Shown in pieces: positions 233-48,884 of a stretch of 64,000 nt of DNA. Location of the stretch: sequence record PZ496581.1. One strand, 5' to 3'. Below the pieces are notes generated by a model, which worked only from the letters and a program-made list of their open reading frames with translations, did no database searches and was not told where the DNA came from. Position 1 is the stretch's first letter. The number at the start of each line of letters is the position of its first letter. Both the position numbers and the translations under genes were made by a program. The DNA comes from a phage.

Positions 233-1132
233 TTATTCCTCGATTACGACATCTTCGTATTTAGGTATATTATACGGTGAAGAAATTAAAGCATTAAAGT
301 AGATGAACTCACCAAGACCTGGATGGAATACTTCTTCAGGATTTTCGAAATATTGAATCTTCGGACGTCCTTTAAGAATTTGATAGTACTCAGTTTTAGT
401 TGGTTTAAAAATTCGAATCAACGCTTCTTCAGGATACTTATTTCTGTCGAAGCTATTATTTGGATCGGTTATATAAAGCGGTTGACCTAATTGAATTGCA
501 CATTCAACCACTTGTTCAAAACGATAGCACGGGTCACTAATTCGAAATGGATGAAAAATACCATCTAGATGAATAGGAGCCAAATCACCTACAAGACGCT
601 GCATGATGGAAGGACGTATAACTTTCTGGGTTATGATAATCTTATTACCATCGGCACCAGCGTTAACCAGCACTTCTTTTTGACGTTCATTCAACACAGT
701 AGTTTGAAGTGAACGATTAACCGACAACATATCGGTTTTTAAGAATTCGTCAATATAAAAACGTGGTTTATTAGGGTCTGCAGTGATATTGAAATTGAAT
801 TCCACATCAAAAGCGCCGTCATATCCGGTGATATCTGTGATTAGAAAATCACAATCATAATAAGCAATTAATGAATCAACCACAAATTCATTTTCAGACC
901 AGAAATATTTACGAGTGTTATACGCGTTATCTTTATACCATAATGGAACAAACTTAAATTCTGGAAAAAGACGTTCGCATTCTTTAATATCAGATGCATT
1001 ACGTGGATATGTAATCACATCACCCGGATTAGCACGGTGCAAATGAAGTTGGAAGTTGCCATCCTTAAGGATAGCATACTGTCCAGTTTCATAAGACCGC
1101 ATACTCAAAATAGGTACGCGGAAAATAGCCAT
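233..1132 (-). CDS. hypothetical enzyme, 299 aa; candidate sugar transferase of the modification cassette
   Basis: ORF with ATG at 1132 overlapping stop of the gene 42-like ORF; no motif recognised. Confidence 0.55.
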   Translation of the reverse strand: MAIFRVPILSMRSYETGQYAILKDGNFQLHLHRANPGDVITYPRNASDIKECERLFPEFKFVPLWYKDNAYNTRKYFWSENEFVVDSLIAYYDCDFLITDITGYDGAFDVEFNFNITADPNKPRFYIDEFLKTDMLSVNRSLQTTVLNERQKEVLVNAGADGNKIIITQKVIRPSIMQRLVGDLAPIHLDGIFHPFRISDPCYRFEQVVECAIQLGQPLYITDPNNSFDRNKYPEEALIRIFKPTKTEYYQILKGRPKIQYFENPEEVFHPGLGEFIYFNALISSPYNIPKYEDVVIEE

Positions 1133-1848
1133 TAGTCAAGGAATCCTTTAACATAATCAAAATCACGTTCAAACACATGGGCACTTACCATGGTATGAGT
1201 ATAATCACCAACTTCTACACCACATTCGTTAGCGATATAATGAAGTAATTTTCCTTGGAGATAAAAATCCAACTGCATAACAACAGCACAGTTCTGAGAA
1301 CGCATATGACAGTGGGTATAAAGCTTACCATCACGAATATAATAAGTCACTGAGTCAGTACATGGATATTCAAGCGTTTCGTCTGAATCAAGCAAAGCCT
1401 GATCAGAACTTTCTAGAATTTGGAACACAACTCTTCGAGAGTTAGGCTTCTCTTTAAGTTCTTTTAGAAGAGCTGGTAATTGGGCCGCAATGCGAGGACC
1501 ATAGAAAGTGTTGAAGTTCGCCGGCAAAACATCTGATTTTGGTTTAGAAATAAATTTAGCGACATTAGGATATGCCTTAAACGCTTCTTCTGCGTTGGTA
1601 CCACCAGAAATCATAAACTTCCAGAAGTCTTCGGCATATTCATAAGAGATGCGGTTAATACGTGGGTCGGTCATTTTGAATGATGATGGAGTGTCAACAA
1701 CTACTGTCATAGACCCAATTTCATTACAACGTCCAATACGAGAATCAGTTACGAATTCCGGGTTTTCTAAAATTTCACGATTGACTGCTTTAAATGCGGT
1801 TTGAAAATCTGCGGCTTTGATATATTTCATTGTGTTATGTTTTCCCAT
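1132..1848 (-). CDS. 42: dCMP hydroxymethylase-like (thymidylate synthase fold), 238 aa
   Basis: ATG at 1848 with GAGG SD; PCTDSVTYYIRD...MRSQNCAVV resembles the T4 gp42/TS active-site region (recalled). Confidence 0.75.
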   Translation of the reverse strand: MGKHNTMKYIKAADFQTAFKAVNREILENPEFVTDSRIGRCNEIGSMTVVVDTPSSFKMTDPRINRISYEYAEDFWKFMISGGTNAEEAFKAYPNVAKFISKPKSDVLPANFNTFYGPRIAAQLPALLKELKEKPNSRRVVFQILESSDQALLDSDETLEYPCTDSVTYYIRDGKLYTHCHMRSQNCAVVMQLDFYLQGKLLHYIANECGVEVGDYTHTMVSAHVFERDFDYVKGFLD

Positions 1849-1890
1849 GTTTACCTCAATACAATTTATTATATACTCAATTCGTAAAGC

Positions 1891-2130
1891 TTATTTGAAT
1901 TTCTTGACAATGTTGATATAACGTAAAGCTTCAGCATCGATACTTCCAAGAACACTATGAAGAAATGCATCAGCGTAGTATTCCAATTGAACAGGTTCTT
2001 TAATCACTTTAGCCGCTTTAGTTTCAAACAGGCCCATCAGGGCCTGTTTAAGAATTTGTTCATTAGTGTTCAGTTTCATAGTCAAAATCTCTTCATTAAG
2101 TTGGTGGTTAAAAGTTTTTCTAGAAATCAT
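1891..2130 (-). CDS. hypothetical protein, 79 aa
   Basis: ORF track; start overlaps stop of upstream gene. Confidence 0.45.
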   Translation of the reverse strand: MISRKTFNHQLNEEILTMKLNTNEQILKQALMGLFETKAAKVIKEPVQLEYYADAFLHSVLGSIDAEALRYINIVKKFK

Positions 2131-3287
2131 TCCGGGTACCTCAAAGCGTCATCAGAGTTAGTTATATCAATAATAGATATAGAGTTTTCTGCTAACCCGT
2201 TTTTAGATAATTGACGTTTATAATATCTTTCACAATATGTACACGTCGTCCCGCAGATTTCATTAGCACAATCGAAATCTGGATGTCTGAACCACCTTTT
2301 TTCTAAAAAGCCATCTAACAAAGAGGTTTCAATATTTACTGTATGTGAAAACTCAGTTTCGTTTTCAAGAGTGAAAATAGTCTCTAAAGGCTTCCACAGT
2401 TCTAACAAATTACCTTCAAACTTTTCAGAAGCGTATGCTTCAAGAACTTTCAAAATGTAGTCTGTGCTACCTGTACGTCCTGAAACTTTGAATTGAGTGA
2501 TACCAATATCATTATAAAGTTTCAAATCTTGAGGACGAACAAAACGAGTTCTCAACCAGTTAAATGGGTCTGTATCACGAGCTTTAATACAGTGCTGCAT
2601 AGGATATCCGTTTAAGGATTTAGCATCATCAGCTGTAACATCAGTACTATGGAAAATATAGCAAGAGTCACGATAGCTACAATGTGTTGTATACCCTTTA
2701 CCAGCATTAGAACAGAACTCATTTACAAGAACTTCAAATATTATATTGTTCTTATTGCAAAACTCTGCTGCACGCTTCAGGAAAGAAACTGAACGGTTCT
2801 TATGAATTCCACAGCAGACCTTTTTGATATTATATTGGTCATGCAAGTATTTGATTTGAGTTACAGCATCGACATGTAGAATTGTTGAAACTTCAATCTC
2901 AATGTCTTTATTGACTTCACGAACAATTTCCATAACAACAGGGTTAGCGATAGTAATACGCCATACGCCTATTGACCAAAGATACTGAACATAATCCTGA
3001 ATAGCTTTCTTCTTCCACTCAACTAGTTCTCTTTTTGAACCAGGATTTATCGTGTTGAGTGTATAGTTAAAGCAAATACCTAATTCGTTACAACGTTTAA
3101 CGTAATCTTCTAACATCTTTTTGTCAACGTCAGGAAGCCTAAAATCAGGTCTGGCTGCTACAAAAGCCATTTCTCTTGTAGAGCCGTATACTTCATTTAT
3201 CAAGCTATTAGGATAAGTTTTATTGAGCTCTACGATTTTATCAAGAAGAGCTAAATCAAAATTCGTTCCGATTTTAAAAGTATTCAT
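2127..3287 (-). CDS. Cys-rich enzyme of unknown function, 386 aa (C-terminal CX4CX3CX2C cluster)
   Basis: ATG at 3287; long ORF inside the sugar cassette; metal-binding-like Cys cluster CANEICGTTCTYC. Confidence 0.6.
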   Translation of the reverse strand: MNTFKIGTNFDLALLDKIVELNKTYPNSLINEVYGSTREMAFVAARPDFRLPDVDKKMLEDYVKRCNELGICFNYTLNTINPGSKRELVEWKKKAIQDYVQYLWSIGVWRITIANPVVMEIVREVNKDIEIEVSTILHVDAVTQIKYLHDQYNIKKVCCGIHKNRSVSFLKRAAEFCNKNNIIFEVLVNEFCSNAGKGYTTHCSYRDSCYIFHSTDVTADDAKSLNGYPMQHCIKARDTDPFNWLRTRFVRPQDLKLYNDIGITQFKVSGRTGSTDYILKVLEAYASEKFEGNLLELWKPLETIFTLENETEFSHTVNIETSLLDGFLEKRWFRHPDFDCANEICGTTCTYCERYYKRQLSKNGLAENSISIIDITNSDDALRYPE

Positions 3288-3347: not shown

Positions 3348-3734
3348 TTATAGATTCGGTTTATATGATTTAAATGTTTCGAATTCGCCTTTATTCATAA
3401 GAGCTTTGAATTCGTCAGGACGCATAGCTTTGTCGTCGATAATCCAATCATATACTGGTTTATGTGTTAGCAAATTATGGTACTTCAAACCAATGTTTTC
3501 CAAGTTCTGAATCAGACTTGGGAGAATGTCAATTGCTATACGACCAGGACCTACTGACTTCATACCACGAGCAGTGTAAAGCGTTATGGTATGCCCTGCA
3601 TCATACAGGGCATTAATGGCAGACACCATTTCGACGTCTGGTTTGAAGTTCACGTAATCACGATTGTTATTCCATTCCGTGATGCAATCATCGACATCAA
3701 AACAAAGATTAAGCATGTTTTCTACACGGTGCAT
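3348..3734 (-). CDS. HAD-superfamily phosphatase, about 128 aa
   Basis: FDVDDC (motif I), TLYTARG (II), HKP (III), WIIDDK (IV); ATG at 3734 overlaps upstream stop (TAATG). Confidence 0.7.
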   Translation of the reverse strand: MHRVENMLNLCFDVDDCITEWNNNRDYVNFKPDVEMVSAINALYDAGHTITLYTARGMKSVGPGRIAIDILPSLIQNLENIGLKYHNLLTHKPVYDWIIDDKAMRPDEFKALMNKGEFETFKSYKPNL

Positions 3735-5419
3735 TAGATTCGTTCCCATTGATGAGTGATATCGCCACCGATTGGACGATAGGAAACACCAGTTTCTTTA
3801 TCAGTTAGTACCCATTTACCAGGATTTTTTGTAATCAGAGTAGCCGTTACAGGTTCTGCTACGTCATAACTAATAGAGCCGTCCTGAAGTACACGGCCCA
3901 TGTTACGTAATTGCTTAGTCAGAAGTTCCATACCTTTATAATATGCGGCTACCGCTTTAAGTGGATTATTCTTGAAATAACCACCTAATGCAATCCAGAT
4001 AATTGCCACTGCCAAATGATGATACTCGTTAAACGAACTCATCTTTCCATATTTGTAAACTAATGGATTGATGTTAATAGTCACATTACAAGTTGTTTCA
4101 TCAATAGTAAACTGTCCCCAGGTCGGATTAGCATTGAATTCATCATAACCTGAAACAGCATAAAGCACTTTAGCTTCATCATACAATTTTGGCCCGTAAA
4201 TCTTGGTTTCGCCAAAATATCCACGAGGGTCGATAAACTTGACTTCGCCGTTATCAGTAATCATAGTATTACTGAAGTTCGGGTCACCATGAATAACAGA
4301 GTACTGTCCCTGAGAACGGTTATGATAACGAATAAGATGTTCTAAAGCTTGTTTCAACATTGGCTTCAGACGTCCAATCTTAGTGTAGTTCACATGTGTG
4401 ATTTTACCAAATGAATCAATCAATGGTTGAATGCTTTCACAACGATCAATAACTTTCGTATAGAATTCTTTAGTGAAATCACGACGAACAGTTTCAGGAC
4501 TTACAAAATAAGTGTCTGTGCTGAATTTCAGTGCATCTAAAATTGCATCAACAATTTGTGGACGAGCAAGACTTGATTTGGATTTAATATATTCAAATGC
4601 TGGCTTACCTTTAATGCGTTCCATTTCAAAGTTATTTTCATTAACAGAAACTAACTGAGGAACTGAATCTGATTTCACTTTAAGATACCACGAAATCTCA
4701 TCTTTCTGAAGAGCTCGTCCCTGTTCGGTTAATGCGAATTTAGTTACAGTTTCTTCACCAATTTCAACTGCATTAAAACTACGATTAAGTTCACGAACTT
4801 CATGAGCTTTTTCAAGTTTAGGCATATCACCTAAATCAATTAGATTCATAAGCTCTGATTTATTGAATGCGCTGGCGTAAAGGAATTCTACGAAATCACG
4901 TCCTTTGCAGTATTCATGAATTTCTTCATCAGTAGAACCCATATAGAATTCCCAGTCTTTGAACTGATAAATTCCTACAACATTACCACCTGTTGAACCT
5001 ACGTTAGTGATATTTTCACCGTCGAAATTATATCGACATTCGTCACCCTTAACATAGATTGCGTTAACATTCCAAGACCATGAACCAAAATCAGGAATAA
5101 TATCACACCAGTTAACAATTACATTATGGCCGTCTAAATCTTTGTGTAATTTAGCAAGAGCATAAGCAGAACCATACGCTTCATCAACTGTACGAATAGT
5201 CACATTGAACCCTTCTTGCTCACAATAAGCTCGAACAGTTTCAGCAAATTTTGAATGAACTACTACAATAATTTCATCTGCGCCAAGGTCAGAATAAATT
5301 GTATACAAATTGCTCAGAATAGTGTCTTGTTTATAATTCACAAGAACTTTTGGAATATGATGCGTTATTGGATACAAACGAGTTGCCAGTCCAGCACCAA
5401 GAATAACAGCTTTTTTCAT
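3734..5419 (-). CDS. bifunctional sugar-1-phosphate nucleotidyltransferase (N-term) / APH-type sugar kinase (C-term), 561 aa
   Basis: N-term ILGAGLATRLYPIT matches the RmlA/GlmU-type GxGTRL motif; C-term IHGDPNFSN...FIDPRG matches the Brenner kinase motif; ATG 5419 with GAGGA SD. Confidence 0.85.
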   Translation of the reverse strand: MKKAVILGAGLATRLYPITHHIPKVLVNYKQDTILSNLYTIYSDLGADEIIVVVHSKFAETVRAYCEQEGFNVTIRTVDEAYGSAYALAKLHKDLDGHNVIVNWCDIIPDFGSWSWNVNAIYVKGDECRYNFDGENITNVGSTGGNVVGIYQFKDWEFYMGSTDEEIHEYCKGRDFVEFLYASAFNKSELMNLIDLGDMPKLEKAHEVRELNRSFNAVEIGEETVTKFALTEQGRALQKDEISWYLKVKSDSVPQLVSVNENNFEMERIKGKPAFEYIKSKSSLARPQIVDAILDALKFSTDTYFVSPETVRRDFTKEFYTKVIDRCESIQPLIDSFGKITHVNYTKIGRLKPMLKQALEHLIRYHNRSQGQYSVIHGDPNFSNTMITDNGEVKFIDPRGYFGETKIYGPKLYDEAKVLYAVSGYDEFNANPTWGQFTIDETTCNVTININPLVYKYGKMSSFNEYHHLAVAIIWIALGGYFKNNPLKAVAAYYKGMELLTKQLRNMGRVLQDGSISYDVAEPVTATLITKNPGKWVLTDKETGVSYRPIGGDITHQWERI

Positions 5420-5460: not shown

Positions 5461-5604
5461 CTAGTTAAAGCATTCATACTTTGCTTGTAGTCCAATCATA
5501 ATCCATCCAATTACAAGTGTTGGAATCATTACCGGAGCCGTTAAGCTCCAGTAGATAGTCATGACAAGCATCAATAGTAAAAGTCCTATTGTTATTGCTT
5601 TCAT
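5461..5604 (-). CDS. small hydrophobic membrane protein, 46 aa (below ORF-track cutoff)
   Basis: Own translation MKAITIGLLLLMLVMTIYWSLTAPVMIPTLVIGWIMIGLQAKYECFN; ATGA overlap with SIS gene stop. Confidence 0.4.
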   Translation of the reverse strand: MKAITIGLLLLMLVMTIYWSLTAPVMIPTLVIGWIMIGLQAKYECFN

Positions 5605-6236
5605 TGTTCGCCTCGTAACATGGCACCTAGTGCACCGCCTGGATGGAACTTAAGGAAATCATTAGAGGTAAATCCACGTTCAGACGAAAGGTTGATAGCA
5701 AACGTATCGATAAGTGCTAACAACAATGTAGTGGACATCGTCGGAGCTAAAGAGTTCTCGTCAACTTCTACCGCGATACCGGTGCAGAACGTATAATCAA
5801 AAAGAGCTTCGTATTCTTGTGGAATGTCAGGGTTACAATGTAACAGAATCTGTTTAACCTGAGGACGAATCATACGAAGATGTTTAGCAACACCTATCAT
5901 TTCTTCAGTCTTACCAGAACGACTGATGTGAACTAATACATCATTAGGTGCAATAAATCCTGCGTCACCATGAGAATAATGCCCGGTGTTCAAATACATG
6001 CTAGGAATACCTAGTGAAGCAAAAGTCTCGGAAGCTTTAGTTGCGATATTAGCATTCTTACCAACACCTGTAATAATTACCCGGCTTTCATAATTACTAA
6101 GTCCAGGGCGTCGAAGAGTTTCTAGAATAGCATTATAACGAGCAGGGTTTTGACTAATTACTTTAGCCATAGTGGCAAGAGATGAAGCTTGTTTTACGAT
6201 TGCGTCAATAGCGATAGTAATAGGAGTAGTTTTCAT
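5601..6236 (-). CDS. SIS-domain sugar-phosphate isomerase (KdsD/GutQ-like arabinose-5-phosphate isomerase candidate), 211 aa
   Basis: ITGVGKNANIATKASETFASLGIPS...HGD...ISRSGKTEE matches the SIS phosphosugar-binding pattern. Confidence 0.8.
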   Translation of the reverse strand: MKTTPITIAIDAIVKQASSLATMAKVISQNPARYNAILETLRRPGLSNYESRVIITGVGKNANIATKASETFASLGIPSMYLNTGHYSHGDAGFIAPNDVLVHISRSGKTEEMIGVAKHLRMIRPQVKQILLHCNPDIPQEYEALFDYTFCTGIAVEVDENSLAPTMSTTLLLALIDTFAINLSSERGFTSNDFLKFHPGGALGAMLRGEQ

Positions 6237-6276: not shown

Positions 6277-8988
6277 TCAAAAATCAAACATATCGAACAG
6301 AGATGCTTTCTTCTCGTAATCGAGTTTAGCTGCTGATGTGAATCCTTCAAGTGGTTTAATAAATGTCTTCTCAAGGAGAACAGTGTAGTCCATCCAATGA
6401 AGTACATCGTCTTTAATTAAATCTGTGATTTCAGTACCAGAAGGCCATGCGATACATTTATCACCGAATGGGTTTCCTTCACGTAAAGGCAGAACATATA
6501 CTTTTTCACCTTCTACAACTTGCGGTGCATCGATATTACCTTTGATAGCCCGGTTATACGTCAGAATTCCACGAATATGGAACGGGCATTTGGGACCAGG
6601 GAATCCACCGACGTCATATTTAGCAATGTTATTCGCAGAAGATACCGACGCGATGCTAATATAATTCAACTGACGGAATTCTTTTTCAAACTCTTTAAAA
6701 TATTCTTGTAATGATTCTTCACCTTCCTGAAGCATACGACGAATACATTCCTTAAGAGCTTTCTGTACTGCTTTAGGAGTCGAAGATTTCTGTGTTTCGA
6801 GACCCATGATTTTAAGCTTAGGTTCAGCGTATCTGGTTCCTTCCATATCCCATACATTCAAGGCATAACGTTTCTTACCTGTCCAAAATCCGCCAATACC
6901 TTTAGAACCAAGCGGAGGCCCAGCGATAGCTTCTCGGTCCATGAACATTAAGTGTTGTTTATTGTTCATGTATTCACACATTTCACGGAAACCTCTATCA
7001 ATAGCTGGTTCCATACGTTCACGTGCAAACTTATCTAAGAAGTCTACCCAATGGTTGGTATCACGGAATTTAGATTCACCAACCTTATCGATAATTTTAT
7101 CGGCAGATACGTAAATAGAGTCTGTATCACCATAAAGAACGAAAGCTTCACCTTCTGTACCACAAACTTCATTCAGATATTCATTAACTTTACGTTCAAT
7201 CCACTGTAAAGCCATTTGTCCGAATGTTGTGATTGCAGTAGCATTACGCAAATCATAATAACGGAACCAAACGTTTCCAAGTGCACCATAAAGTGAGTTG
7301 ATGAGCAATTTACGGTTAATTTGTGCAGTCATACCTGCAACTTCAGTACGTTGAGCTCTAAACAACATTTCATTAAGAGATTTAGCAGACAACTTTTTAA
7401 TCTTTTCTTTAATCTCATCGCTGAAGTCGAAACGATAATCAACATCTAATGGTTCGTCAACAGAAAGATTAGGATTATGCAATGCCTCTTTAATTATTTC
7501 ACCATTACGTTGAGCTGCAAGCATGTAACCTTTATGTTCTTTACGTTGATTAAAGACCTTAGTGATTTCAGTTGGAACTACACCATCACGGTCTTTATAA
7601 TACATCATGCCGTTAGGAGAACAACTGTACACATCTGAAGGACGTTCAGCGATTGCGTTAATATAATCATGCAATGGAGCTACTTTAAACGTTCCTGCTA
7701 TTGTTTCCGGGCTAATATTCACTTGGCGAATAATACTTGGATACAGAGATGTAAGGTCGAAACTCATTACATATTTGTATCGATTTGGAATAGGTTCCTT
7801 AACAAAAGCGCCAGGATAAGGTTGAACCGGGTGAGAACGACCTTGTGGAATCACCTTGTTCTGTTCTTTAAGGCTATTAAAAATAATAGCATCCCATGTT
7901 TTAATTGGGCCAAACACAGATTGAATCTGTATCTTAGCATAATAACCCATGTCCAAACTCAAGTTGATGAACTGACGCTTAGCATCAATTTGCAATACAC
8001 GATACACATCGATAATGTTATAAGAAATATATCGTTGGTGATTGCTTTCACGAAGTTTAGAAATAGGGCCGTCATATTTCAGTTTACCAACGTTCAATTC
8101 AAATTCTGAAATGTAATCCAGAGAATACGATGGTTGATTGGTAAAAGAGAATTTTTTGTAAAGGTCAATGTAATCAAGAACAGAGATACCGAACAATGTA
8201 ATGATTTCACGAGAACCATACATGTTTTCGATAACTTTAACACGAGTTTTACGATGTGGTGATAAACGTTTCGCAGTAGATTCGCCAAAAATATTCTTGA
8301 TTCGGTTATACACATATGGAATATCGAATGACTCAACGTTCCATCCAGTCAAAATGACAGGAGTTTTCTGTTGCCAGAAGTTGAGATATTCCATCAACAA
8401 TTCTTTTTCGTTATCGAACGGTATATAAATGATTTTATCGATAATTTCGGATGGAACTTCATCACCACCTTGTTCTTGAAGCTTAGCCGCAATTTCGATA
8501 GACCATTCTTCTACATTACCATACGGAGAATTCAATAGATCAAATACGTAGAACCTGTCGTCAATTGAGTCATAATGGGTGATAGCATCAATCGGATGTT
8601 TTGCTTGTGATGGCTCAGGGAACCCATCCGGAGATGTTACTTCGATGTCGAAGTTAGCCACACGAATTTTTGTATGGTCGTATTTGATTTCATAGTTATA
8701 AGTGTCAGACAAATACGCCAATTTGAAATCGTCCATACCAAGTGCTTCAAGTCCGATATCTTCCATGCGTTTAATCCATTGGGAGGCATCACGCATATTA
8801 GCGAACAACTTACGAGTACACGGCTTACCGTAGATATCGAAATATTTCGTAGCCTGACTTTCTGGACAATGAGCAAACAGTGATGGTTTATATTCTACTT
8901 CACGAGTACGTTCACGGCCATTAGAATCGATGTAACGTTCAAAAATTGAATCACCAATCTGTTCAACCGTTAAGTAAAATTCTTTCAT
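6277..8988 (-). CDS. 43: DNA polymerase gp43 (family B), 903 aa
   Basis: Near-identity to T4/RB69 gp43 as recalled; exo motifs FDIE, NIIDV; YGDTDS polymerase motif. Confidence 0.97.
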   Translation of the reverse strand: MKEFYLTVEQIGDSIFERYIDSNGRERTREVEYKPSLFAHCPESQATKYFDIYGKPCTRKLFANMRDASQWIKRMEDIGLEALGMDDFKLAYLSDTYNYEIKYDHTKIRVANFDIEVTSPDGFPEPSQAKHPIDAITHYDSIDDRFYVFDLLNSPYGNVEEWSIEIAAKLQEQGGDEVPSEIIDKIIYIPFDNEKELLMEYLNFWQQKTPVILTGWNVESFDIPYVYNRIKNIFGESTAKRLSPHRKTRVKVIENMYGSREIITLFGISVLDYIDLYKKFSFTNQPSYSLDYISEFELNVGKLKYDGPISKLRESNHQRYISYNIIDVYRVLQIDAKRQFINLSLDMGYYAKIQIQSVFGPIKTWDAIIFNSLKEQNKVIPQGRSHPVQPYPGAFVKEPIPNRYKYVMSFDLTSLYPSIIRQVNISPETIAGTFKVAPLHDYINAIAERPSDVYSCSPNGMMYYKDRDGVVPTEITKVFNQRKEHKGYMLAAQRNGEIIKEALHNPNLSVDEPLDVDYRFDFSDEIKEKIKKLSAKSLNEMLFRAQRTEVAGMTAQINRKLLINSLYGALGNVWFRYYDLRNATAITTFGQMALQWIERKVNEYLNEVCGTEGEAFVLYGDTDSIYVSADKIIDKVGESKFRDTNHWVDFLDKFARERMEPAIDRGFREMCEYMNNKQHLMFMDREAIAGPPLGSKGIGGFWTGKKRYALNVWDMEGTRYAEPKLKIMGLETQKSSTPKAVQKALKECIRRMLQEGEESLQEYFKEFEKEFRQLNYISIASVSSANNIAKYDVGGFPGPKCPFHIRGILTYNRAIKGNIDAPQVVEGEKVYVLPLREGNPFGDKCIAWPSGTEITDLIKDDVLHWMDYTVLLEKTFIKPLEGFTSAAKLDYEKKASLFDMFDF

Positions 8989-9016
8989 TTAATTTCCTTT
9001 AGACGAGTTATTGTCT
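8989..9016 (-). promoter_or_regulatory. candidate gene 43 translational operator (hairpin AGAC-8 nt loop-GTCT plus SD AAAGGA)
   Basis: Hairpin and SD directly 5' of gene 43 ATG; T4-family gp43 autoregulates through such an operator. Confidence 0.4.
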
Positions 9017-9035
9017 TTTGTTTGTTGATGAACTT

Positions 9036-9063
9036 ATTATACTCCAAATGGGACCGAAGTCCC
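9036..9063 (-). promoter_or_regulatory. -10 TATAAT plus GGGAC-UUCG-GUCCC hairpin between regA and gene 43
   Basis: Minus-strand TATAAT at 9036-9041; tetraloop hairpin 9050-9063. Confidence 0.4.
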
Positions 9064-9069
9064 ATTGCT

Positions 9070-9438
9070 TTAATTACCAATTGTATATTTTGCTTTCAAA
9101 GTCCAGTCATCTTTCTGTTTAAAAGAGATAACACGGAAGTTATTAGTCAGGCCAAACAGATCTTCACGAGCAGAGTCTTCAATAACAATCAAGCCCCAGT
9201 CTTCAAGCAACTGAGCAATCGAATCACGTCGCTGATAGTCTTCACCATCAATATCAACCTGACGTCCGTCCATACGCAGCATTTCTTTAAAGTGGACGAT
9301 GTAATATTTACCTTGCTTTTGGAGGATATGACAGGACTGATAAAGAACTTTATCCTTGTTATTAGCGATGCCCATACGGGTCAGAGTCTCTTTGACTTTC
9401 AGAAAATCTTCGGGGTTCTTCAATTTAATTTCGATCAT
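9070..9438 (-). CDS. regA: translational repressor RegA, 122 aa
   Basis: MIEIKLKNPEDFLKVKETLTRMGIANNKDKVLYQSCHILQK matches T4 RegA as recalled; start trimmed to MIEI. Confidence 0.9.
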   Translation of the reverse strand: MIEIKLKNPEDFLKVKETLTRMGIANNKDKVLYQSCHILQKQGKYYIVHFKEMLRMDGRQVDIDGEDYQRRDSIAQLLEDWGLIVIEDSAREDLFGLTNNFRVISFKQKDDWTLKAKYTIGN

Positions 9439-9440
9439 TT

Positions 9441-10004
9441 TTACCATTCCAATGCTAATTTTTTAAATTGTTTTTGTTCTTTCACATTTTTTGTAACTTC
9501 TTTGAGAAACTCATCAGTGACCATGGCCTTCAGTTCTTTAAGGACTATTGGCAACTTGTTATTTTTTTCAAGGAGCCGCTTATACTCGGTAGCATCATTC
9601 ATGTTGATTGTGTAATGTTTCATCAACAGTTTGATAACTAGTAACTCTGAAGTGTCTTCGACTAGTTTAGCCCATTTAGAGAATCGTCGGCCACGTGGAA
9701 TTGCCGCCATCATATAGTTGAAGTGCGCTTCATCACTTAATTCAGAACCGACTAAGTTCATCATGTAAACGGCTGGCATACATTCTGGGAACTGGGATAA
9801 TGAGTTCTCAACCATAAATTTTGAGTAGTCGACCTGAGCAATTGACATAGATTTCTTTTCATTAATAGCATTAATGATTTTAAAGAATTCATTCTCAGGT
9901 TTTTCTTTAAACATGTCAGCACATTTTTGAATCGCATCAGCGTCGTTAGACTTCCATGCAATTTGGTGCTCGTTAAGTTGGACGTCATCATCAAATAAGT
10001 TCAT
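9441..10004 (-). CDS. 62: clamp loader small subunit gp62
   Basis: 187 aa; position between regA and 44. Confidence 0.85.
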
Positions 10005-10005
10005 A

Positions 10006-10968
10006 TTATTTCCAAGTCAGTTCGCAGGTCAGTTGAAGAAGCATATACATAACATGTAATTCAATATTACTTGCTAATCCATGAAACTTATTATTTTCGC
10101 CTGCAATTTCATAAAGCGAAATAATACTTTTACCTGGTGCAACTTTGTCATAACACTCAGAAACTAATTTATCGATGAACCATGAATAATCAGCGGCATA
10201 TTTTGGAGCTAACGCACGAAGCTGTTTGATATCTTTATTTTTCATTGCTTCTATGACATCATCTACCGTGCCACGATCATTGGTTACAATCGACAAAATA
10301 CCTGCATCAAGAACACCTTTAGACGAGTACTGGTCTAATTGACCAATTGTACGTCGAAAGTCCGGGAAGTTCTTTTTAACCAGAGCTGCAACAACTTTCA
10401 TATCAGCGATTTCGATATTTTCATTCTTACAGATTTCAACCATACGATGAATCATTTTCTTCATCATTGAGATTTTATCTTCTTCGGTTGGACGTCCGAA
10501 TTCGATAACTCGACAACGACTACGTAATGGTTCAATAATTCCATCGATGTTGTTGGCAGTAATAATAATAGAACAGTTACTAGAGAATTCTTCCATGAAT
10601 GTACGAAGGTGACGTTGTGATTCGGCGAGGCCACTACGGTCAAATTCATCAATAACAATAACTTTAGGTTTGCCTTCCATTGAGACTGAACGAGCGAATG
10701 CAGTTAACGGACCACGCACAAAATCAATCTTACAATCAGAACCGTTGACGAACATCATTTCGGCATTGATATCATTACATAATGCTTTTGCTACGGTTGT
10801 TTTACCTGTACCAGGAGAAGGAGAGTGCAAAATAATATGAGGAAGTTTTCCTTTAGATACTAAAGACTTGAATGTTTCATGGTCATACGCGGGCAGAATA
10901 CATTCGTCAATGGAAGAAGGACGATATTTCTGTTCTAGAATGTGTTCTTTGGAATTGATAGTAATCAT
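10006..10968 (-). CDS. 44: clamp loader large subunit gp44 (AAA+)
   Basis: Walker [11 protein letters not shown]; Walker B VIVIDEFD; 320 aa. Confidence 0.92.
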
Positions 10969-11043
10969 GTAATTTTCCTCATTATCATTAAACTGGAGGA
11001 TTTCTCCTCCATAATCGTATCACAATAAACGTAAAGCTTTGAC

Positions 11044-11730
11044 TTAGAAGTCGTGAGTAGAATCGGCTTCCATCGCAATAACATAACTTACTTGAGAGCT
11101 TTCAAACTTGGCTGCAACTTTATCACCAGCTCCCCACAACATTACTTTATAGTTACCTGGCTGGATTTTCATATTAGCCATATTGATTACGAAGTTAAAG
11201 TTGTTAGAACCATCATAATCGGTAAGAGTTAAAGAATACTTAGGACGAGTTAGTCCAGAATCTTCAACTTTATTATAGCCATTGATAACAATTTTACCAT
11301 CTTTATTTGTAATAGCAATTGTATCAATCTGAAGACCACGTGAAACTCGAAGCAATTGTTGAAGGTCTTCAACTTTAATTTCAGTAATCACAGAAGCCAC
11401 TGGGAATTGAATTGGCTTATTAGGAAAAACAATGGTGCTCTTGTCGGCAGCAGGCCAATAAACTGTGGAACGTGTATCTGCAATTTTAATATTGCCATCA
11501 GTGTGCATTGAAATTTCAGCATCATCAGACACTAGACTCAAAATGCTTAAGAAGCTATTCAAATCATAAAGTGCTACGTCAAAATCAATTTCATCAGAGA
11601 TATTTGCTTCCGCATAAGTGGTGCCATTAACTGCACGAGTCATAATAAATTTACCTTGACTCAGCAGAATGCCAGAGTTAATAGAGGCAAAGTTTTTCAG
11701 AATAGCGATAGTATCTTTAGACAGTTTCAT
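11044..11730 (-). CDS. 45: sliding clamp gp45
   Basis: MKLSKDTIAILKNFASINSGI matches T4 gp45 N-terminus; start trimmed to MKLSKD. Confidence 0.9.
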   Translation of the reverse strand: MKLSKDTIAILKNFASINSGILLSQGKFIMTRAVNGTTYAEANISDEIDFDVALYDLNSFLSILSLVSDDAEISMHTDGNIKIADTRSTVYWPAADKSTIVFPNKPIQFPVASVITEIKVEDLQQLLRVSRGLQIDTIAITNKDGKIVINGYNKVEDSGLTRPKYSLTLTDYDGSNNFNFVINMANMKIQPGNYKVMLWGAGDKVAAKFESSQVSYVIAMEADSTHDF

Positions 11731-11772
11731 TTTATTTCCTTTCAAGACAATTCAAAGTTTATAACAAATTTA

Positions 11773-12189
11773 TTATGCAGCAACCATCTGCTTTTTAATA
11801 GCTTCAGGCAGTGATTCAATATATTCTGGAATTTTAGAAGCAACAATTTCGCCAGCTGCAATTAGTTGTTCGTCGGCATCAACACAGTAGAAATCTTCTA
11901 GACGCTCAGAACCATCTTTATCAAGAACGATTTTTCCGCCGGCTTCAATAGAATCTTTATAGTGCTTACGCATCAGATGAATCCACATATCAGATACATC
12001 GTTATCAATAAAACCATAAATCATAAAACGAGTTTCTTGTGGCAAAGATTGGAGTTTTTTAGCACTTGCGTCATCACAATGCAGGACCCATGCTTTACGA
12101 ACACGATTATGGTTATGTGGGTTAGCGTCAGTACGGATAGAAGTAACTTTCAGATCAGCAGCAGTGAAACCTTTAGCAGTAGTAAACAT
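11773..12189 (-). CDS. rpbA: RNA polymerase binding protein RpbA-like, 138 aa
   Basis: Size and position immediately upstream of gene 45. Confidence 0.6.
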   Translation of the reverse strand: MFTTAKGFTAADLKVTSIRTDANPHNHNRVRKAWVLHCDDASAKKLQSLPQETRFMIYGFIDNDVSDMWIHLMRKHYKDSIEAGGKIVLDKDGSERLEDFYCVDADEQLIAAGEIVASKIPEYIESLPEAIKKQMVAA

Positions 12190-12201
12190 ATTATTTCTCT
12201 C

Positions 12202-12402: not shown

Positions 12403-12444
12403 TTAATTTGATGTGGTCATTATAACCACATCGTGTTAAAGCGT

Positions 12445-20127: not shown

Positions 20128-20598
20128 TTAATCATGTTTCCACACCCCATCGGTATTTGTCCAAAGTCGCTGATTATCTGATCCTCGCCACAGCTTTTTA
20201 GTCGGAAGATTTTTCTCATACTTCCCATCAATAATAACATCAACATATTTAAGCATTTCTAGCTGTTTAATATCTTCAAACTTATATCCTGTCCACAACC
20301 AAATGCTTTTATTTGGATAAAGATTTTTTACTGTTTGAGCAATGCAATGAATAACATCTCGATTATCAGGATAGAGAGGGTCACCTCCGGTTATAGTCAA
20401 TCCTTCTATATAATCATTATTCAAACATTCAATTAATTGTTCTAGTGTCTCTCCGGTGAATGGAATACCATTTCTAGCATTCCATGTTGATTTATTATAA
20501 CACCCTTCGCATTTATGCAAACAACCTGTAACGAAAAGAACGACCCTGCAACCAGGGCCATTCACAAAATCGCAAGGATAAAATCTATCATAATTCAT
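20128..20598 (-). CDS. nrdG: anaerobic ribonucleotide reductase activating protein NrdG (radical SAM)
   Basis: Cys cluster CRVVLFVTGCLHKCEGC; 156 aa; directly downstream of nrdD. Confidence 0.88.
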   Translation of the reverse strand: MNYDRFYPCDFVNGPGCRVVLFVTGCLHKCEGCYNKSTWNARNGIPFTGETLEQLIECLNNDYIEGLTITGGDPLYPDNRDVIHCIAQTVKNLYPNKSIWLWTGYKFEDIKQLEMLKYVDVIIDGKYEKNLPTKKLWRGSDNQRLWTNTDGVWKHD

Positions 20599-22412
20599 TG
20601 GTGTTTAACCCTATGCATGATTTCTTTATTTTTACCGAGATTAAATCCGCGTTCGTTAGGATTTCCCAAATAACCGCATGTTCTTCTTATGGTGTTCATC
20701 TTTTTAGGATCAGTTTCTCCACAAACTGAACAAACAAATCCGTTTTCAGTAGGAGTCATTTCATGGGTACTTCCGCATGTAAAACATTTATCTACTGGCA
20801 TATTAACACCAAAATAATCTAAATGTTGTGCAGCATAATCCCATACGGCCTCAAGACCTTTTAAGTTATTTTTCATATCAGGAAGTTCAACATAAGAAAT
20901 GTGACCACCTGTCGCAATGAAATGATATGGCGCTTCATGAGAAATCTTTTCAAACGGAGTAATATTTTCTTCTACTGAAACATGGAAACTATTAGTGTAC
21001 CAGCCTTTATCAGTGACATCCTTTACACTTCCATATTTTTCTGTATCAAGTTTACAGAAGCGATAACAAAGGTTTTCAGCAGGAGTAGAATACAAACTAA
21101 AAGCAAACCCAGTTCTTTCAGTCCACTGTTTAAGATGAGCATTCATTTTAGTTAAAATTTCTTGCCCAATATCACGACCGACAAGAATATTCAATTCGTG
21201 AATACCAATGTATCCTAGGGACACTGAACTTCTACCGTTTTTAAATAACTCAATTATATCGTCATCAGGTTTAAGACGAACCCCGAATGCACCTTCTTGG
21301 TAAAGAATAGGAGCAACAGTCGCTTTAACTCCTTTTAAGGAACTAATTCTACACATCAAAGCTTCAAAACATAAATCCATTCGTTCATTGAATAATTCAA
21401 CAAATTTCTGTTCGTTAAATTGCGTTCCAATATAAGAATCTAACGCGATGCGAGGAAGATTCAATGTTACAACACCAAGATTATTGCGACCATCAAGAAT
21501 TTCATTACCGGTTGAATCTTTCCATACACTCAAGAAACTACGGCAACCCATTGGAGAAACAGGAACTGAAGAACCGGTAATAGCTTTATTATTCTTAACC
21601 GAAATAATGTCAGGATACATTCTTTTGCTTGCACATTCTAACGCAAGTTGTTTAATATCATAGTTTGGATCATCTTTATAAAGATTAACACCTTCTTCAA
21701 CAAACATAACAAGCTTAGGGAAAATAGGAGTTATCCCATCACGACCAAGACCTTTAATACGATTTTTCAGAATTGCTTTCTGAATCATTCGTTCAGTCCA
21801 GTCAGTTCCCGTACCAAATGTAATTGTTACAAAAGGAGTTTGTCCGTTTGAACTAAAGAGAGTATTTACTTCATACTCATAAGCTTGAAATGCGTCATAG
21901 ACATCTTTTTCTGTTTTGGATTGAGCATAATTCAACGCATCAGCGATTTGCCATTTTTCTGCATCCTCAATATGTTTTGCATAGGTGCGTTTAACATAAG
22001 GAGAAAGTACTTTATCTACATTCGCAAATGTAGTTCCGCCATACTGGTGTGAAGCAACCTGTGCGGTAATTTGTGCCATAATTGCAGTAGCAACGCCAAT
22101 TGATTTAGGAGTTTCAATCTGTGCATTACCTAGCTTAAATCCATTCTCAAGCATCCCCTTTAAATCGACTAAACAGCAATTGGTAAACGGAAGAGCAGGA
22201 GAATAATCAATATCATGCATGTGAATGATTCCGCTTTCATGCGCATTCATAATAAAAGACGGGACCATATTTTTGGCAATGTGCTTAGACACAATACCAG
22301 CCATAAGGTCCCGTTGAGTTGGAAAAACACGAGAATCTTTATTAGCATTCTCGTTCAAAAGATCTTTATTAGTTTTATAAATTAATCCTTCAATTTCTTT
22401 TTCAATTTTCAT
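20595..22412 (-). CDS. nrdD: anaerobic ribonucleoside-triphosphate reductase NrdD
   Basis: 605 aa; C-terminal glycyl-radical motif RTCGYLG and Zn-ribbon CFTCGS...CSVCG; ORF is continuous (no intron). Confidence 0.95.
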   Translation of the reverse strand: MKIEKEIEGLIYKTNKDLLNENANKDSRVFPTQRDLMAGIVSKHIAKNMVPSFIMNAHESGIIHMHDIDYSPALPFTNCCLVDLKGMLENGFKLGNAQIETPKSIGVATAIMAQITAQVASHQYGGTTFANVDKVLSPYVKRTYAKHIEDAEKWQIADALNYAQSKTEKDVYDAFQAYEYEVNTLFSSNGQTPFVTITFGTGTDWTERMIQKAILKNRIKGLGRDGITPIFPKLVMFVEEGVNLYKDDPNYDIKQLALECASKRMYPDIISVKNNKAITGSSVPVSPMGCRSFLSVWKDSTGNEILDGRNNLGVVTLNLPRIALDSYIGTQFNEQKFVELFNERMDLCFEALMCRISSLKGVKATVAPILYQEGAFGVRLKPDDDIIELFKNGRSSVSLGYIGIHELNILVGRDIGQEILTKMNAHLKQWTERTGFAFSLYSTPAENLCYRFCKLDTEKYGSVKDVTDKGWYTNSFHVSVEENITPFEKISHEAPYHFIATGGHISYVELPDMKNNLKGLEAVWDYAAQHLDYFGVNMPVDKCFTCGSTHEMTPTENGFVCSVCGETDPKKMNTIRRTCGYLGNPNERGFNLGKNKEIMHRVKHQ

Positions 22413-48149: not shown

Positions 48150-48884
48150 TTACCTTAAGATTGTTTCAATTTTAGAATAAAGCTCTTCTAAAGAGCCGTC
48201 GTTTGTAATAACTAAATCGCCTTCTTCAATAGGCAACCCAGCTTCTGTAATATGTTTATCAGTGGATTCCGTACCAGAGCGAACCACATGAATAACTGTA
48301 GCACCCATCGCTCTAGCGGTTTCCATTTCATGGACTTGGCGTGTATCGGTTACAACATAGTAATCGAAATCACTTCCAATATAATCCATATAATTTAATG
48401 CAAAAAGTTTAACCCAATACATACGGTCAAATAAATTAACGACAACATCCGTACCGAGGGCTTGCATAAGACGGCGGATTGACCATGTGTCGTTGATATT
48501 ATTTATAGCTTCACGCAGGGCTTCATACGGTTTAATATCTAGATATGAATACCCACCTTCTAATGATGATAATACTTTAACATTATTAATTGGTAAATAT
48601 TGACTTTGTAAATAAATTAGCGCTTCTTCCATTAATTCAATAACATCCAACTTATTGATATTTAATGGTGTTTCACGGTCGTATCCAACACCTTCAAAGT
48701 ATTCATATTTCAACTCTGTGAATACATCAGGATCTTCAGCATGTTTACGACCCCAGGCTATTGCTAGAGCGTCTTTAATCGGATATGCCAATTGGTATTT
48801 TACGGATTTAAAGTTTGAATTGATGTAATCAGCAGTAGTGTCTTTACCACTACGTTTGATGCCACTTAAAAAGATTAGCTCCAT
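48150..48884 (-). CDS. 1: deoxynucleoside monophosphate kinase gp1
   Basis: MELIFLSGIKRSGKDTTAD...MQALGTD...VIHVVR matches T4 gp1 as recalled. Confidence 0.92.
   Translation of the reverse strand: MELIFLSGIKRSGKDTTADYINSNFKSVKYQLAYPIKDALAIAWGRKHAEDPDVFTELKYEYFEGVGYDRETPLNINKLDVIELMEEALIYLQSQYLPINNVKVLSSLEGGYSYLDIKPYEALREAINNINDTWSIRRLMQALGTDVVVNLFDRMYWVKLFALNYMDYIGSDFDYYVVTDTRQVHEMETARAMGATVIHVVRSGTESTDKHITEAGLPIEEGDLVITNDGSLEELYSKIETILR

Follow-up and report, generated by a model that had tools for sequence, protein, structure and literature searches.

A seven-gene cassette in an RB69-like Mosigvirus appears to direct the synthesis of arabinosyl-5-hydroxycytosine DNA, and two of its genes probably encode the transferase for this base and a second hydroxylase. 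We put the probability of this combined reading at roughly 60%. The candidate hydroxylase, a 386-aa protein of the peptidase U32 family, is best read from sequence and gene context as an O2-independent, prephenate-dependent cytosine C5-hydroxylase. We consider the chances about even for a broader proposal, in which this protein is the founding member of a largely viral group of single-chain U32 Fe-S enzymes that use prephenate to hydroxylate C5 of cytosine on a DNA precursor. Such enzymes would serve as a backup to the O2/flavin-dependent synthase in enteric T4-like phages, and as the sole hydroxylase for the same glycosyltransferase (GT) family in many large phages, probably those of anaerobes.

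Modified base and cassette genes

The cassette lies within the 64,000-nt stretch of phage DNA that was analyzed (record PZ496581.1; here termed the window). The window phage matches Shigella phage JK42 at 99% identity, and JK45 is a second near-identical genome. Both open reading frames singled out by the first-pass annotation are real, and are located on the minus strand at 233..1132 (299 aa) and 2127..3287 (386 aa). All seven cassette genes occupy the same strand; where neighbors overlap they share 1, 4 or 16 nt, and elsewhere 40-181 nt separate them. This spacing is consistent with co-transcription, as had been supposed, although a promoter and terminator scan of the cassette gave no more candidate sites than expected from shuffled sequences.

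Mosigvirus DNA contains 5-ara-dC, which is arabinosyl-5-hydroxycytosine without a methylene bridge (PMC13326640, PMC13390438). The hydroxyl is predicted to be supplied by a 238-aa thymidylate synthase (TS) homologue (1132..1848, minus strand; Pfam Thymidylat_synt, 56.9 bits), the counterpart of RB69 gp48 and a putative flavin- and O2-dependent 5-hydroxy-dCMP synthase. Synthases of 5hodCMP are recognized by D169N with N177D and L143E, together with the catalytic C146 (PMC13326640). The 238-aa protein bears this signature (E143/C146/N169/D177 in E. coli ThyA numbering), which is present in 73 of the 74 TS-like ORFs adjacent to a GT gene. The gene had initially been taken for gene 42, a dCMP hydroxymethylase that would provide an hmC acceptor, but its signature is that of a hydroxylase and not of a hydroxymethylase. 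RB69 gp48 yields 5hodCMP with a flavin cofactor and incorporates 18O from O2, and gp48 plus a kinase alone suffice for 5hodC formation in E. coli (PMC13326640). The RB69 kinase gp159 phosphorylates 5hodCMP (PMC13326640), and its homologue in the window is a dNMP kinase gene at 48153..48884 (minus strand; 98% identity by tblastn).

UDP-arabinofuranose (UDP-Araf) is made by a SIS isomerase, a kinase/uridylyltransferase and a HAD phosphatase via Ru5P -> A5P -> Ara-1,5-P2 -> Ara-1-P -> UDP-Araf, a route that is complete without a redox step or a U32 protein (PMC13326640). Candidates for these enzymes are encoded on the minus strand of the cassette. A 211-aa SIS-domain D-arabinose-5-phosphate isomerase (5601..6236; Pfam SIS, 39 bits) is homologous to RB69 gp55. 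The 561-aa bifunctional sugar kinase/NDP-sugar pyrophosphorylase (3734..5419), a homologue of RB69 gp52:53 and HY126 AfhE, has an N-terminal Pfam NTP_transferase match and weak kinase-fold matches. The 133-aa HAD-type phosphatase (3348..3749), homologous to RB69 gp51 and HY126 AfhF, is assigned the conversion of Araf-1,5-P2 to Araf-1-P (role from PMC13326640), and its gene is syntenic across all T4-like clusters examined. Between the isomerase and 561-aa genes lies a small ORF for a hydrophobic 47-aa product (5461..5604, minus strand), for which JK45 annotates a matching 144-nt CDS. The GenBank labels "peptidase," "GlmU," "phosphoheptose isomerase" and "dCMP hydroxymethylase" on cassette genes are misleading.

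The 299-aa glycosyltransferase

Fold-level comparison reveals two Rossmann-like α/β domains with GT-B topology in the 299-aa protein. Sequence searches of Pfam, NCBIfam and the PDB returned zero matches, and its relationship to GTs is visible only at the fold level. The EX7E motif, a hallmark of retaining GT4 enzymes, was considered and rejected. E267-x7-E275 is present, but position 267 is K or T in most family members, and the only conserved residues in this region are E/D263, H270 and E275. Mosigvirus copies of the protein are 98-100% identical. The gene is directly downstream of the TS homologue with a 1-nt overlap, and the same TS-to-GT adjacency was observed in 52 contigs.

Lee et al. 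(2026, PMC13326640) proposed that the homologous RB69 gp46:47 is the arabinosyltransferase that acts first on the DNA of 5hoC phages. Accordingly, we infer that the 299-aa protein is a candidate 5hoC arabinosyltransferase, an assignment that is already published and hence not novel. The protein shows no substantive difference from RB69 gp46:47, DLP3 gp79 or Thanatos TH1_063. A sequencing error splits gp46:47 in the RB69 reference record, whereas the window gene is intact. With UDP-Araf as donor, the enzyme would attach the first arabinose to the cytosine 5-OH. Counting against this, in vitro first-step arabinosylation failed for the DLP3 homologue, and single DLP3 GTs were inactive on 5hoC DNA (Lee et al., PMC13326640). 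The next sugar would be added by a second GT of 366 aa (RB69 gp3, PDB 9iqz). This gene was sought in the window and not found; in JK45 it resides ~20 kb outside the window. As the proposed second arabinosyltransferase, its product does not displace the 299-aa protein from its role.

No sequence similarity exists between the 299-aa protein and the α- and β-glucosyltransferases of T4. The T4 enzymes transfer glucose from UDP-glucose to the hydroxymethyl group of hmC, whereas here the predicted donor is UDP-arabinofuranose and the predicted acceptor is the ring 5-OH itself.

The 386-aa U32-family protein

Contrary to the initial remark that neither protein has a nameable motif, the 386-aa protein (a homologue of RB69 gp50) does have one. 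Residues 94-286 match Pfam Peptidase_U32 (PF01136) at 42.2 bits (cutoff 22.4), and fold comparison indicates a TIM barrel as in Mk0906 (PDB 5d88), although PDB sequence searches were without a match here as well. Mk0906, the only solved U32 structure, has 247 aa, is 11-14% identical to the phage protein, and lacks a counterpart of the C-terminal ~140 residues, in which the CX4CX3CX2C cluster of the phage protein lies. The phage protein belongs to a separate, largely viral U32 clade. It is orthologous to no characterized U32 hydroxylase: its identity to each of the four E. coli U32 paralogues is 17-18%, and it scores 18.5 bits against the NCBIfam UbiU model (cutoff 440). Both values count against the hydroxylase reading.

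Ten of the 13 Cys residues are conserved without exception in 37 homologues, the most distant of which is 46% identical. Four of these (Cys340/345/349/352; codons at 2232..2270, minus strand) form a CX4CX3CX2C cluster that had been described as ending the protein, but is followed by 34 further residues. Its invariance in these homologues argues that the pattern is not due to chance. A metal site, as guessed earlier, is plausible, given that U32 family members bind 4Fe-4S clusters (PMC6747719). The other invariant residues are C158, C177, C192, C203, C209 and C233.

E185, C192 and C209 align with E161/C169/C176 of RlhA and E162/C170/C177 of TrhP, and the two Cys also with C169/C176 of UbiU. In these paralogues, the aligned residues are experimentally essential or serve as Fe-S ligands (PMC6599085, PMC5727448, PMC6747719). 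Within the clade, C192 and C209 are invariant, and E185 is retained in seven of eight members, with D in one. The candidate motif (codons at 2589..2735, minus strand) has the spacing CX10CX5CX23C, compared with CX6CX15CX3/4C or the UbiU variant CX6CX16CX38C. The first two motif Cys align, but the third and fourth ligand positions do not align with those of UbiU and TrhP, which also counts against the hydroxylase reading; C203 and C233 are clade-specific. The segment GYPMQHC233 resembles GYPTLC232 of UbiU, yet the two are not aligned by MAFFT. In a loose alignment, MAFFT placed RlhA C580/C611/C614 opposite C340/C349/C352, and the C-terminal Cys cluster of RlhA is essential (PMC5727448).

RlhA (YdcP), which 5-hydroxylates C2501 of E. 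coli 23S rRNA, shares with the phage protein the U32 E/C/C motif and an extra C-terminal Cys cluster (PMC5727448), and its chemistry is the cytosine 5-hydroxylation that we propose for the phage enzyme. RlhA depends on prephenate and on Fe-S biogenesis. However, it is a 653-aa protein with a DUF3656 domain that acts on an rRNA precursor, whereas the 386-aa phage protein is 18% identical, has other Cys spacing, presumably acts on a deoxynucleotide or DNA, and is not an ortholog.

In the proposed mechanism, Cys192/203/209/233 would ligate the canonical U32 4Fe-4S cluster, and Cys340/345/349/352 may hold a second cluster for electron transfer. A single chain with up to two clusters would then do the job of the UbiU-UbiV heterodimer. 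The enzyme would install the same C5 hydroxyl as the TS homologue without O2, probably on dCMP and possibly on cytosine in DNA, by using prephenate as the oxygen source, as has been proposed for RlhA (ho5C in rRNA), TrhP (ho5U in tRNA) and UbiU/UbiV.

Gene linkage, distribution and alternative functions

Chorismate mutase (CM) produces prephenate, the oxygen donor of U32 hydroxylases. In 51 related phage records, a gene for a true CM lies between the U32 and TS genes and shows translational coupling to U32. In Entb_45, for example, a bona fide AroQ CM overlaps the U32 stop codon (CM_2, 40.9 bits; PDB 1ybz, 3.5e-8). Four viral contigs that are not related to these phages have a DAHP-synthase-CM fusion directly upstream of U32 and likewise coupled to it, and a DAHP-synthase-family gene adjoins U32 in L017. 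This linkage suggests prephenate chemistry for the U32 protein. Related phages could supply prephenate with their own CM, and the Mosigvirus might draw on host PheA/TyrA; a CM gene was looked for in the window and is absent, which counts against the hydroxylase reading.

A 79-aa ORF of the RB69 ORF049c family (phrog_8601; 1891..2130, minus strand), which overlaps the U32 stop codon by 4 nt, resembles the Entb_45 CM in size and position. It was rejected as a diverged CM: BLASTP against that protein gave an E value of 6.9, Pfam and NCBIfam gave no match even at E 10, hhalign against a phage CM profile gave a probability of 0.5%, and the ORF is found together with the CM in Yersinia phiR1-RT and Serratia 92A1. 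Shortened variants of this ORF are common in Mosigviruses.

The GT family is always found beside a TS-type hydroxylase gene, a U32 gene or both. In a census that covered ±10 kb plus a motif-based scan of whole contigs, which a divergent TS could escape, the neighbor was TS-type only in 36 contigs, U32 only in 26-27, and both in 15-16. These complementary classes suggest that U32 and the TS-type hydroxylase are functionally equivalent. The whole-contig motif scan detected no TS-type gene on the 23 U32-only IMG/VR contigs, of which 13 have a length of 100 kb or more. In nine U32-only contigs, the GT and U32 genes overlap stop to start.

Among phage records, U32 is present in 0 of 57 from Acinetobacter and in 222 of 286 others, and in these 222 it sits inside the DNA-modification cassette. 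A strict rule that phages of facultative anaerobes carry U32 is broken by E. coli Dhakaviruses such as VR5, and only the one-sided statement holds, that U32 never occurs in Acinetobacter phage records. The Dhakaviruses count against the hydroxylase reading, in that U32 is evidently dispensable in some enteric hosts. The absence of U32 from phages of Acinetobacter, which are strict aerobes, argues for an oxygen-related role, as do the genes for the anaerobic ribonucleotide reductase in the window (NrdG, 156 aa, and NrdD, 605 aa; 20128..22412, minus strand; 98-100% identity to JK45 proteins by tblastn), which provide the phage with a means of making DNA precursors anaerobically.

Precedents for paired O2/flavin and U32/prephenate routes support the same logic, namely UbiI/H/F with UbiU-UbiV for ubiquinone and TrhO with TrhP for tRNA ho5U34 (PMC10990095, PMC6599085, PMC6747719). 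Depending on the oxygen regime, organisms possess one or both enzymes of these systems, and the TS-only, U32-only and dual classes of phages mirror this arrangement. In contrast to the Trh and Ubi systems, the O2-dependent partner in phages is a TS-fold flavoenzyme, and the substrate is a viral DNA precursor. In the absence of O2, the U32 protein would stand in for the O2-dependent synthase encoded two genes downstream, and a gut phage with both NrdDG and U32 could fully modify its DNA over the whole oxygen range.

Other functions of the U32 protein were weighed against this proposal. PMC13326640 (Table 1) and the BASEL phage record MZ501056 assign it to the sugar branch, as a "sugar or heterocycle reductase" or a UDP-arabinose biosynthesis enzyme, and its gene does lie between the sugar-activation and base-modification genes. 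This role is unlikely, because sugar genes occur without U32 and U32 occurs without arabinose genes. VR5 and the Acinetobacter phages combine TS and GT with the sugar genes, and DLP3, other Acinetobacter phages and Dhakaviruses arabinosylate DNA or carry the full sugar set, all without U32. Conversely, U32 accompanies a TAGT glycosyltransferase and UDP-Galp mutase in L018, and dCMP deaminase or thymidylate kinase in L003 and L006, where sugar genes are absent. (The 300-aa neighbor of U32 in L018 was considered as a member of the same GT family, but is the TAGT.) The distribution of U32 is thus independent of sugar type. Moreover, the UDP-Araf route needs no redox enzyme, reductase activity is known for no U32 member (PMC10990095), and the CM linkage would be left unaccounted for.

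It is also improbable that the protein is a prephenate-dependent hydroxylase of some other target (RNA of the host or phage, uracil nucleotides or a quinone) unrelated to DNA modification. The characterized U32 hydroxylases of nucleic acids all have RNA substrates (PMC5727448, PMC6599085), and some relatives adjoin dCMP deaminase or dUTPase genes, which may point to a uracil substrate. However, the repeated tight coupling to a DNA GT family, the distribution complementary to that of 5hodCMP synthase and the placement in DNA-modification cassettes all argue otherwise, and E. coli already has RlhA, TrhP and UbiUV.

Still less probable is an accessory role in which the protein assists the TS-type flavoenzyme as a redox partner, such as by delivering electrons for flavin reduction. 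Flavin hydroxylases require a reductant, Fe-S proteins commonly shuttle electrons, and in all T4-like clusters that have U32, this gene and TS are two positions apart. Nevertheless, ~27 contigs combine U32 and GT with no TS-type gene nearby, RB69 gp48 does not need U32 to yield 5hodC in E. coli, the substrate-side residues of the hydroxylase paralogues (E185/C192/C209) are kept, and the CM linkage indicates prephenate chemistry.

In the first-pass annotation, the two proteins were seen as candidates for a new hmC sugar transferase and for an enzyme that tailors the sugar. The GT-B fold of the 299-aa protein and the position of both genes beside sugar-activation genes agree with the first half in part, but the base is 5hoC and the transferase assignment is already published. 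The 386-aa protein has a U32 TIM barrel rather than a transferase fold and occurs regardless of sugar type, and the scheme as a whole is very unlikely. Of the two findings named beforehand as refuting it, clear homology to a non-transferase family holds for the 386-aa protein, whereas the GT encoded elsewhere leaves the role of the 299-aa protein intact. A genuine collagenase-type peptidase, the annotation in many GenBank records and an activity reported for two U32 proteins (cited in PMC5727448), is hardly credible for a protein whose family has no known catalytic mechanism for proteolysis, whose gene context is made up exclusively of nucleotide and DNA-modification genes, and whose invariant Fe-S-type Cys suit a redox enzyme.

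The preferred reading, an O2-independent hydroxylase, bears on how these phages protect their genomes. Full-text searches of the accessible literature found no link of U32, CM or prephenate to these phages, and the CM/U32 hydroxylase reading seems not to have been put forward there. The only known route to 5-hydroxycytosine in DNA requires O2, although these phages inhabit the gut and encode an anaerobic ribonucleotide reductase. If the reading is correct, the enzyme would account for full modification, and hence for protection from restriction and CRISPR, without air, which is relevant to phage therapy at anoxic sites. It would be the first viral U32 hydroxylase and the first with DNA building blocks as substrates, and would extend the use of prephenate as an oxygen donor from RNA and quinones to DNA precursors. 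In vitro reconstitution has been achieved for no U32 enzyme of any kind (PMC10990095), and a small enzyme with a soluble nucleotide substrate could make it feasible. Finally, many uncultured large phages are predicted from their U32-only clusters to have glycosylated hydroxypyrimidine DNA. Glycosylated 5-hydroxypyrimidine DNA, made by a previously undescribed route, would then be widespread in anoxic habitats.

Cassette layout and the modified base

The first 6.3 kb of the window and the DNA polymerase gene at 6277-8988 match Mosigvirus (RB69-like) T-even phages. Shigella phage JK42/JK45 is 99.0% identical across the full query, of which at least 80% is covered in 153 records. The cassette is on the minus strand, and the polymerase gene is followed, in the direction of transcription, by genes for an SIS isomerase (5601-6236), a 47-aa hydrophobic ORF (5461-5604), a 561-aa nucleotidyltransferase/kinase (3734-5419), a 133-aa HAD phosphatase (3348-3749), a 386-aa protein (2127-3287), a 79-aa ORF (1891-2130), a 238-aa thymidylate synthase (TS) homologue (1132-1848), a 299-aa protein (233-1132), and a thymidylate-kinase-like protein whose gene extends past the window edge. 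The 299-aa and 386-aa ORFs are both present as the first-pass annotation described them. Overlaps of 1, 4, and 16 nt and gaps of 40-181 nt fit a single transcription unit; a scan of the cassette for consensus promoters and terminators gave results no better than those for shuffled sequence.

The 47-aa ORF, whose JK45 counterpart is annotated as a hypothetical protein, is strongly hydrophobic, lies between the isomerase and 561-aa genes, and overlaps the 3' end of the former by 4 nt. GenBank labels on this cassette are systematically misleading (comparison loci L001, L002, and L008): the HAD phosphatase appears as "phosphoheptose isomerase," the kinase/uridylyltransferase as "bifunctional protein GlmU," the 5-hydroxy-dCMP synthase as "dCMP hydroxymethylase" or "thymidylate synthase," and the 386-aa protein as "peptidase."

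The TS homologue had been read as gene 42 and the modified base as hydroxymethylcytosine, a premise that does not hold. RB69 DNA contains mono- and di-arabinosyl-5-hydroxycytosine (Lee et al. 2026, PMC13326640), and the Durham Collection paper on Mosigvirus NP agrees on the modified base. [quoted passage not shown] An Asp169-to-Asn change (E. coli ThyA numbering) is diagnostic of such TS homologues (PMC13326640), and the window protein carries the full signature, E143/C146/N169/D177. A pathway demonstrated by others leads from ribulose-5-phosphate to UDP-arabinofuranose through the isomerase, the 561-aa enzyme (AfhE), and the phosphatase (AfhF) (He et al. 2026, as described in PMC13326640).

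The glycosyltransferase and the U32-family protein

The 299-aa protein has no sequence match in Pfam, NCBIfam, or PDB. Its AlphaFold2 model (pLDDT 93.8, from a 38-sequence alignment) places it among GT-B glycosyltransferases, by predicted fold only because the EX7E motif of GT4 is not conserved across the family. This result agrees with that published for RB69 gp46:47, the proposed "arabinosyltransferase 1" of Lee et al. (PMC13326640); the RB69 gene is split through sequencing error, whereas that in the window is intact. Thus, an earlier guess that one of the two unassigned ORFs encodes the sugar transferase was right as to kind for this one, but the assignment is not new. The protein presumably attaches the first arabinose, as already proposed in print, a step not yet reconstituted (PMC13326640). 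A second glycosyltransferase of 366 aa, corresponding to RB69 gp3 and essentially identical to PDB 9iqz, is encoded in JK45 ~20 kb past the position matching the left end of the window, and has no counterpart inside the window.

The 386-aa protein, homologous to RB69 gp50, scores 42.2 bits against Pfam Peptidase_U32 (cutoff 22.4) and is therefore a U32-family member and a predicted Fe-S protein. The CX4CX3CX2C cluster noticed in the first-pass annotation corresponds to Cys340/345/349/352 and, together with six further cysteines, is invariant among 37 homologues with identities down to 46%. The K-12 genome supplied the E. coli UbiU, UbiV, RlhA, and TrhP sequences for an alignment with the 386-aa protein. 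Window residues E185/C192/C209 align with RlhA E161/C169/C176 and TrhP E162/C170/C177, which are essential for formation of ho5C2501 and ho5U34 (PMC5727448, PMC6599085). The same window residues coincide with the UbiU 4Fe-4S ligands C169/C176 (PMC6747719). Other Fe-S ligand positions differ from those of the E. coli paralogues, in that the phage clade has a CX10CX5CX23C arrangement with its own invariant C203 and C233. The Cys340/345/349/352 group is an extra C-terminal four-cysteine cluster, a feature also present in RlhA. With 17-18% identity to the E. coli paralogues and scores below every NCBIfam cutoff, the protein represents, as judged by sequence, a separate clade that is not orthologous to any characterized enzyme.

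Formation of 5-hydroxycytidine in rRNA requires RlhA, that of 5-hydroxyuridine in tRNA requires TrhP (PMC5727448, PMC6599085), and the three ring hydroxylations in anaerobic ubiquinone synthesis require UbiU/UbiV (PMC10990095). All of these enzymes depend on prephenate and Fe-S clusters and act without O2 (PMC10990095, PMC6599085, PMC5727448), and 18O labelling identified prephenate as the oxygen donor in ubiquinone hydroxylation (PMC10990095). No U32 member has been reconstituted in vitro (PMC10990095). Two of these reactions are also served in the cell by O2-dependent enzymes, namely TrhO and the flavoenzymes UbiI/H/F (PMC10990095, PMC6599085).

Gene associations and distribution of phage U32 genes

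In Enterobacter phage Entb_45, a true AroQ chorismate mutase (CM), the enzyme that makes prephenate, is the product of a 79-aa gene that overlaps the stop codon of U32 (Pfam CM_2, 40.9 bits, cutoff 27; PDB 1ybz at 3.5e-8). A tblastn search located this CM in 51 phage records, positioned each time between U32 and the TS homologue. These phages infect Klebsiella, Serratia, Yersinia, Enterobacter, Edwardsiella, Erwinia, Pectobacterium, Providencia, Morganella, Kosakonia, Shewanella, and E. coli (phage EcS1). A DAHP synthase-CM fusion lies directly upstream of U32 in four unrelated viral contigs, with both domains far above cutoffs, and in a fifth contig (L017) a DAHP-synthase-family gene follows U32. 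Therefore, two unrelated phage lineages couple this U32 clade to prephenate supply, with two different CM architectures. The window contains no CM, and Mosigviruses would draw prephenate from host PheA/TyrA.

The 79-aa ORF of the window is not a CM: hhalign against the phage CM profile gives it a probability of 0.5%. It falls in another small family, members of which occur alongside CM in Yersinia and Serratia phages. This family is coupled to U32 and has the conserved core YY-DAF-HS..G...E..RHIN. Among Mosigviruses, it evolves faster than U32 (89-99% versus 99-100% identity) and is often shortened to 47-58 aa.

U32 homologues of 46-58% identity are abundant in metagenomes, and where context is visible they always lie in phage-like replication and nucleotide modules, with PolIII-alpha, UDG, dCMP deaminase, thymidylate kinase, or deoxynucleoside kinase. 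In several such contigs, the gene just upstream of U32 (~330 aa) encodes a distant relative of the 299-aa glycosyltransferase (24-27% identity over ~300 residues) that retains all core invariant residues.

We fetched 105 viral loci by using U32 and glycosyltransferase alignments and searched the ORFs in them with HMMs for the individual cassette components. With 7 earlier metagenomic loci added, the set comprises 92 distinct contigs, and the glycosyltransferase family is present in 80 of these. The hydroxylase candidate nearby is of the TS type only in 36 contigs, U32 only in 26, both in 16, and neither in 2, both fragments of <4.5 kb. Because one contig with both encodes a canonical thymidylate synthase (LCDN signature), the split becomes 27 with U32 only and 15 with both. 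The ECND hydroxylase signature is present in 73 of 74 glycosyltransferase-adjacent TS-type ORFs, and ECSD in the other. A scan of the whole collection found this TS type in 75 contigs, under the limit of 80 loci; the 23 U32-only IMG/VR contigs, including 13 of 100 kb or more, are not among them. The glycosyltransferase stop codon overlaps the U32 start in nine U32-only contigs, mirroring the TS-to-glycosyltransferase overlap elsewhere.

Arabinose-activation genes occur in some U32-only clusters (L017 and others), whereas contig L018 carries a TAGT glycosyltransferase and UDP-galactopyranose mutase in their place; U32 thus tracks base-side chemistry and not any particular sugar. The L018 cluster (6495-14179) also encodes a P-loop kinase, a relative of the 299-aa glycosyltransferase, U32, and a dUTPase/dCTP deaminase, but lacks a TS homologue. 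The cluster resembles a U32-based version of the hexosyl-5-hydroxycytosine pathway of Rhizobium phage RL38JI.

Other arrangements were also observed. A radical-SAM/SPASM gene, whose product may be a maturase or a partner, immediately precedes the glycosyltransferase-U32 pair in several non-T4 phage contigs (L019 5972-9101; L020 5980-9086). In L004 (11160-13360), such a gene lies before a second U32 paralogue that is very divergent (21-25% identity). In phage-like contigs of 466 kb and 60 kb (L003 6447-8086; L006 6504-8083), U32 directly follows dCMP deaminase, near thymidylate kinase, UDG, and PolIII-alpha and with no glycosyltransferase in view; these may specify a hydroxylated uracil or cytosine without a sugar. 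Some 128-191 kb phage contigs encode a member of the 299-aa glycosyltransferase family that is ~560-606 aa, about double the normal size; it includes an additional unannotated region and has no Pfam match (L053/L065 5237-7057; L044 2591-4408; L059 5318-7003).

In the annotated phage collection, 343 records contain the glycosyltransferase and 222 contain U32. The hosts of the phages with U32 are Enterobacterales or Shewanella; the gene is in none of 57 Acinetobacter phage records (Fisher's test p = 3e-31, uncorrected for phylogeny) or in Pseudomonas phage PspYZU05. The host association holds in one direction only: E. coli Dhakaviruses, VR5 among them, do without U32 as well.

Proposed role of U32 and oxygen

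Family membership, conserved catalytic residues, linkage to CM and to the glycosyltransferase, complementary distribution, and host range suggest, with a probability of roughly 0.6, that the 386-aa protein is a C5 hydroxylase acting on the base that the TS homologue also hydroxylates, depending on prephenate but not on O2. We infer this function by comparison throughout; whether the substrate is dCMP or DNA, what the second cysteine cluster does, and which electron acceptor is used are matters for guesses.

Lee et al. list gp50 just as "sugar or heterocycle reductase" (Table 1, PMC13326640), and such a reductase is one alternative. U32 might also be a redox helper of the flavoenzyme, a hydroxylase with some other target, or a true peptidase. 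None of the four accounts for the CM linkage together with the glycosyltransferase clusters in which U32 is the only hydroxylase candidate. Lee et al. refer to the RNA hydroxylation papers with the statement that those pathways have no homologue of the 5-hydroxy-dCMP synthase, and do not mention U32, chorismate, or prephenate (PMC13326640). Among the accessible full texts, none ties a U32 or CM gene of a phage to DNA modification, although an earlier mention may exist elsewhere.

The proposed O2-independent hydroxylase is encoded by a phage that also carries the anaerobic ribonucleotide reductase NrdD/NrdG. In the window, NrdD (20595-22412, minus strand) is one intact 605-aa ORF, whereas in JK45 (99% identical) it is in two CDS split by an I-TevII-like homing endonuclease gene. 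A gene for a GrcA-like autonomous glycyl radical cofactor (~37760-38120, minus strand) shows two overlapping matches to the JK45 protein, each in a different frame, and just a 48-aa ORF is left; a frameshift, pseudogene formation, or sequencing error may account for this. NrdD/NrdG therefore allows the phage to make dNTPs in the absence of oxygen, whereas oxygen is essential to the TS-type enzyme, the one hydroxylase of the phage that has been characterized.
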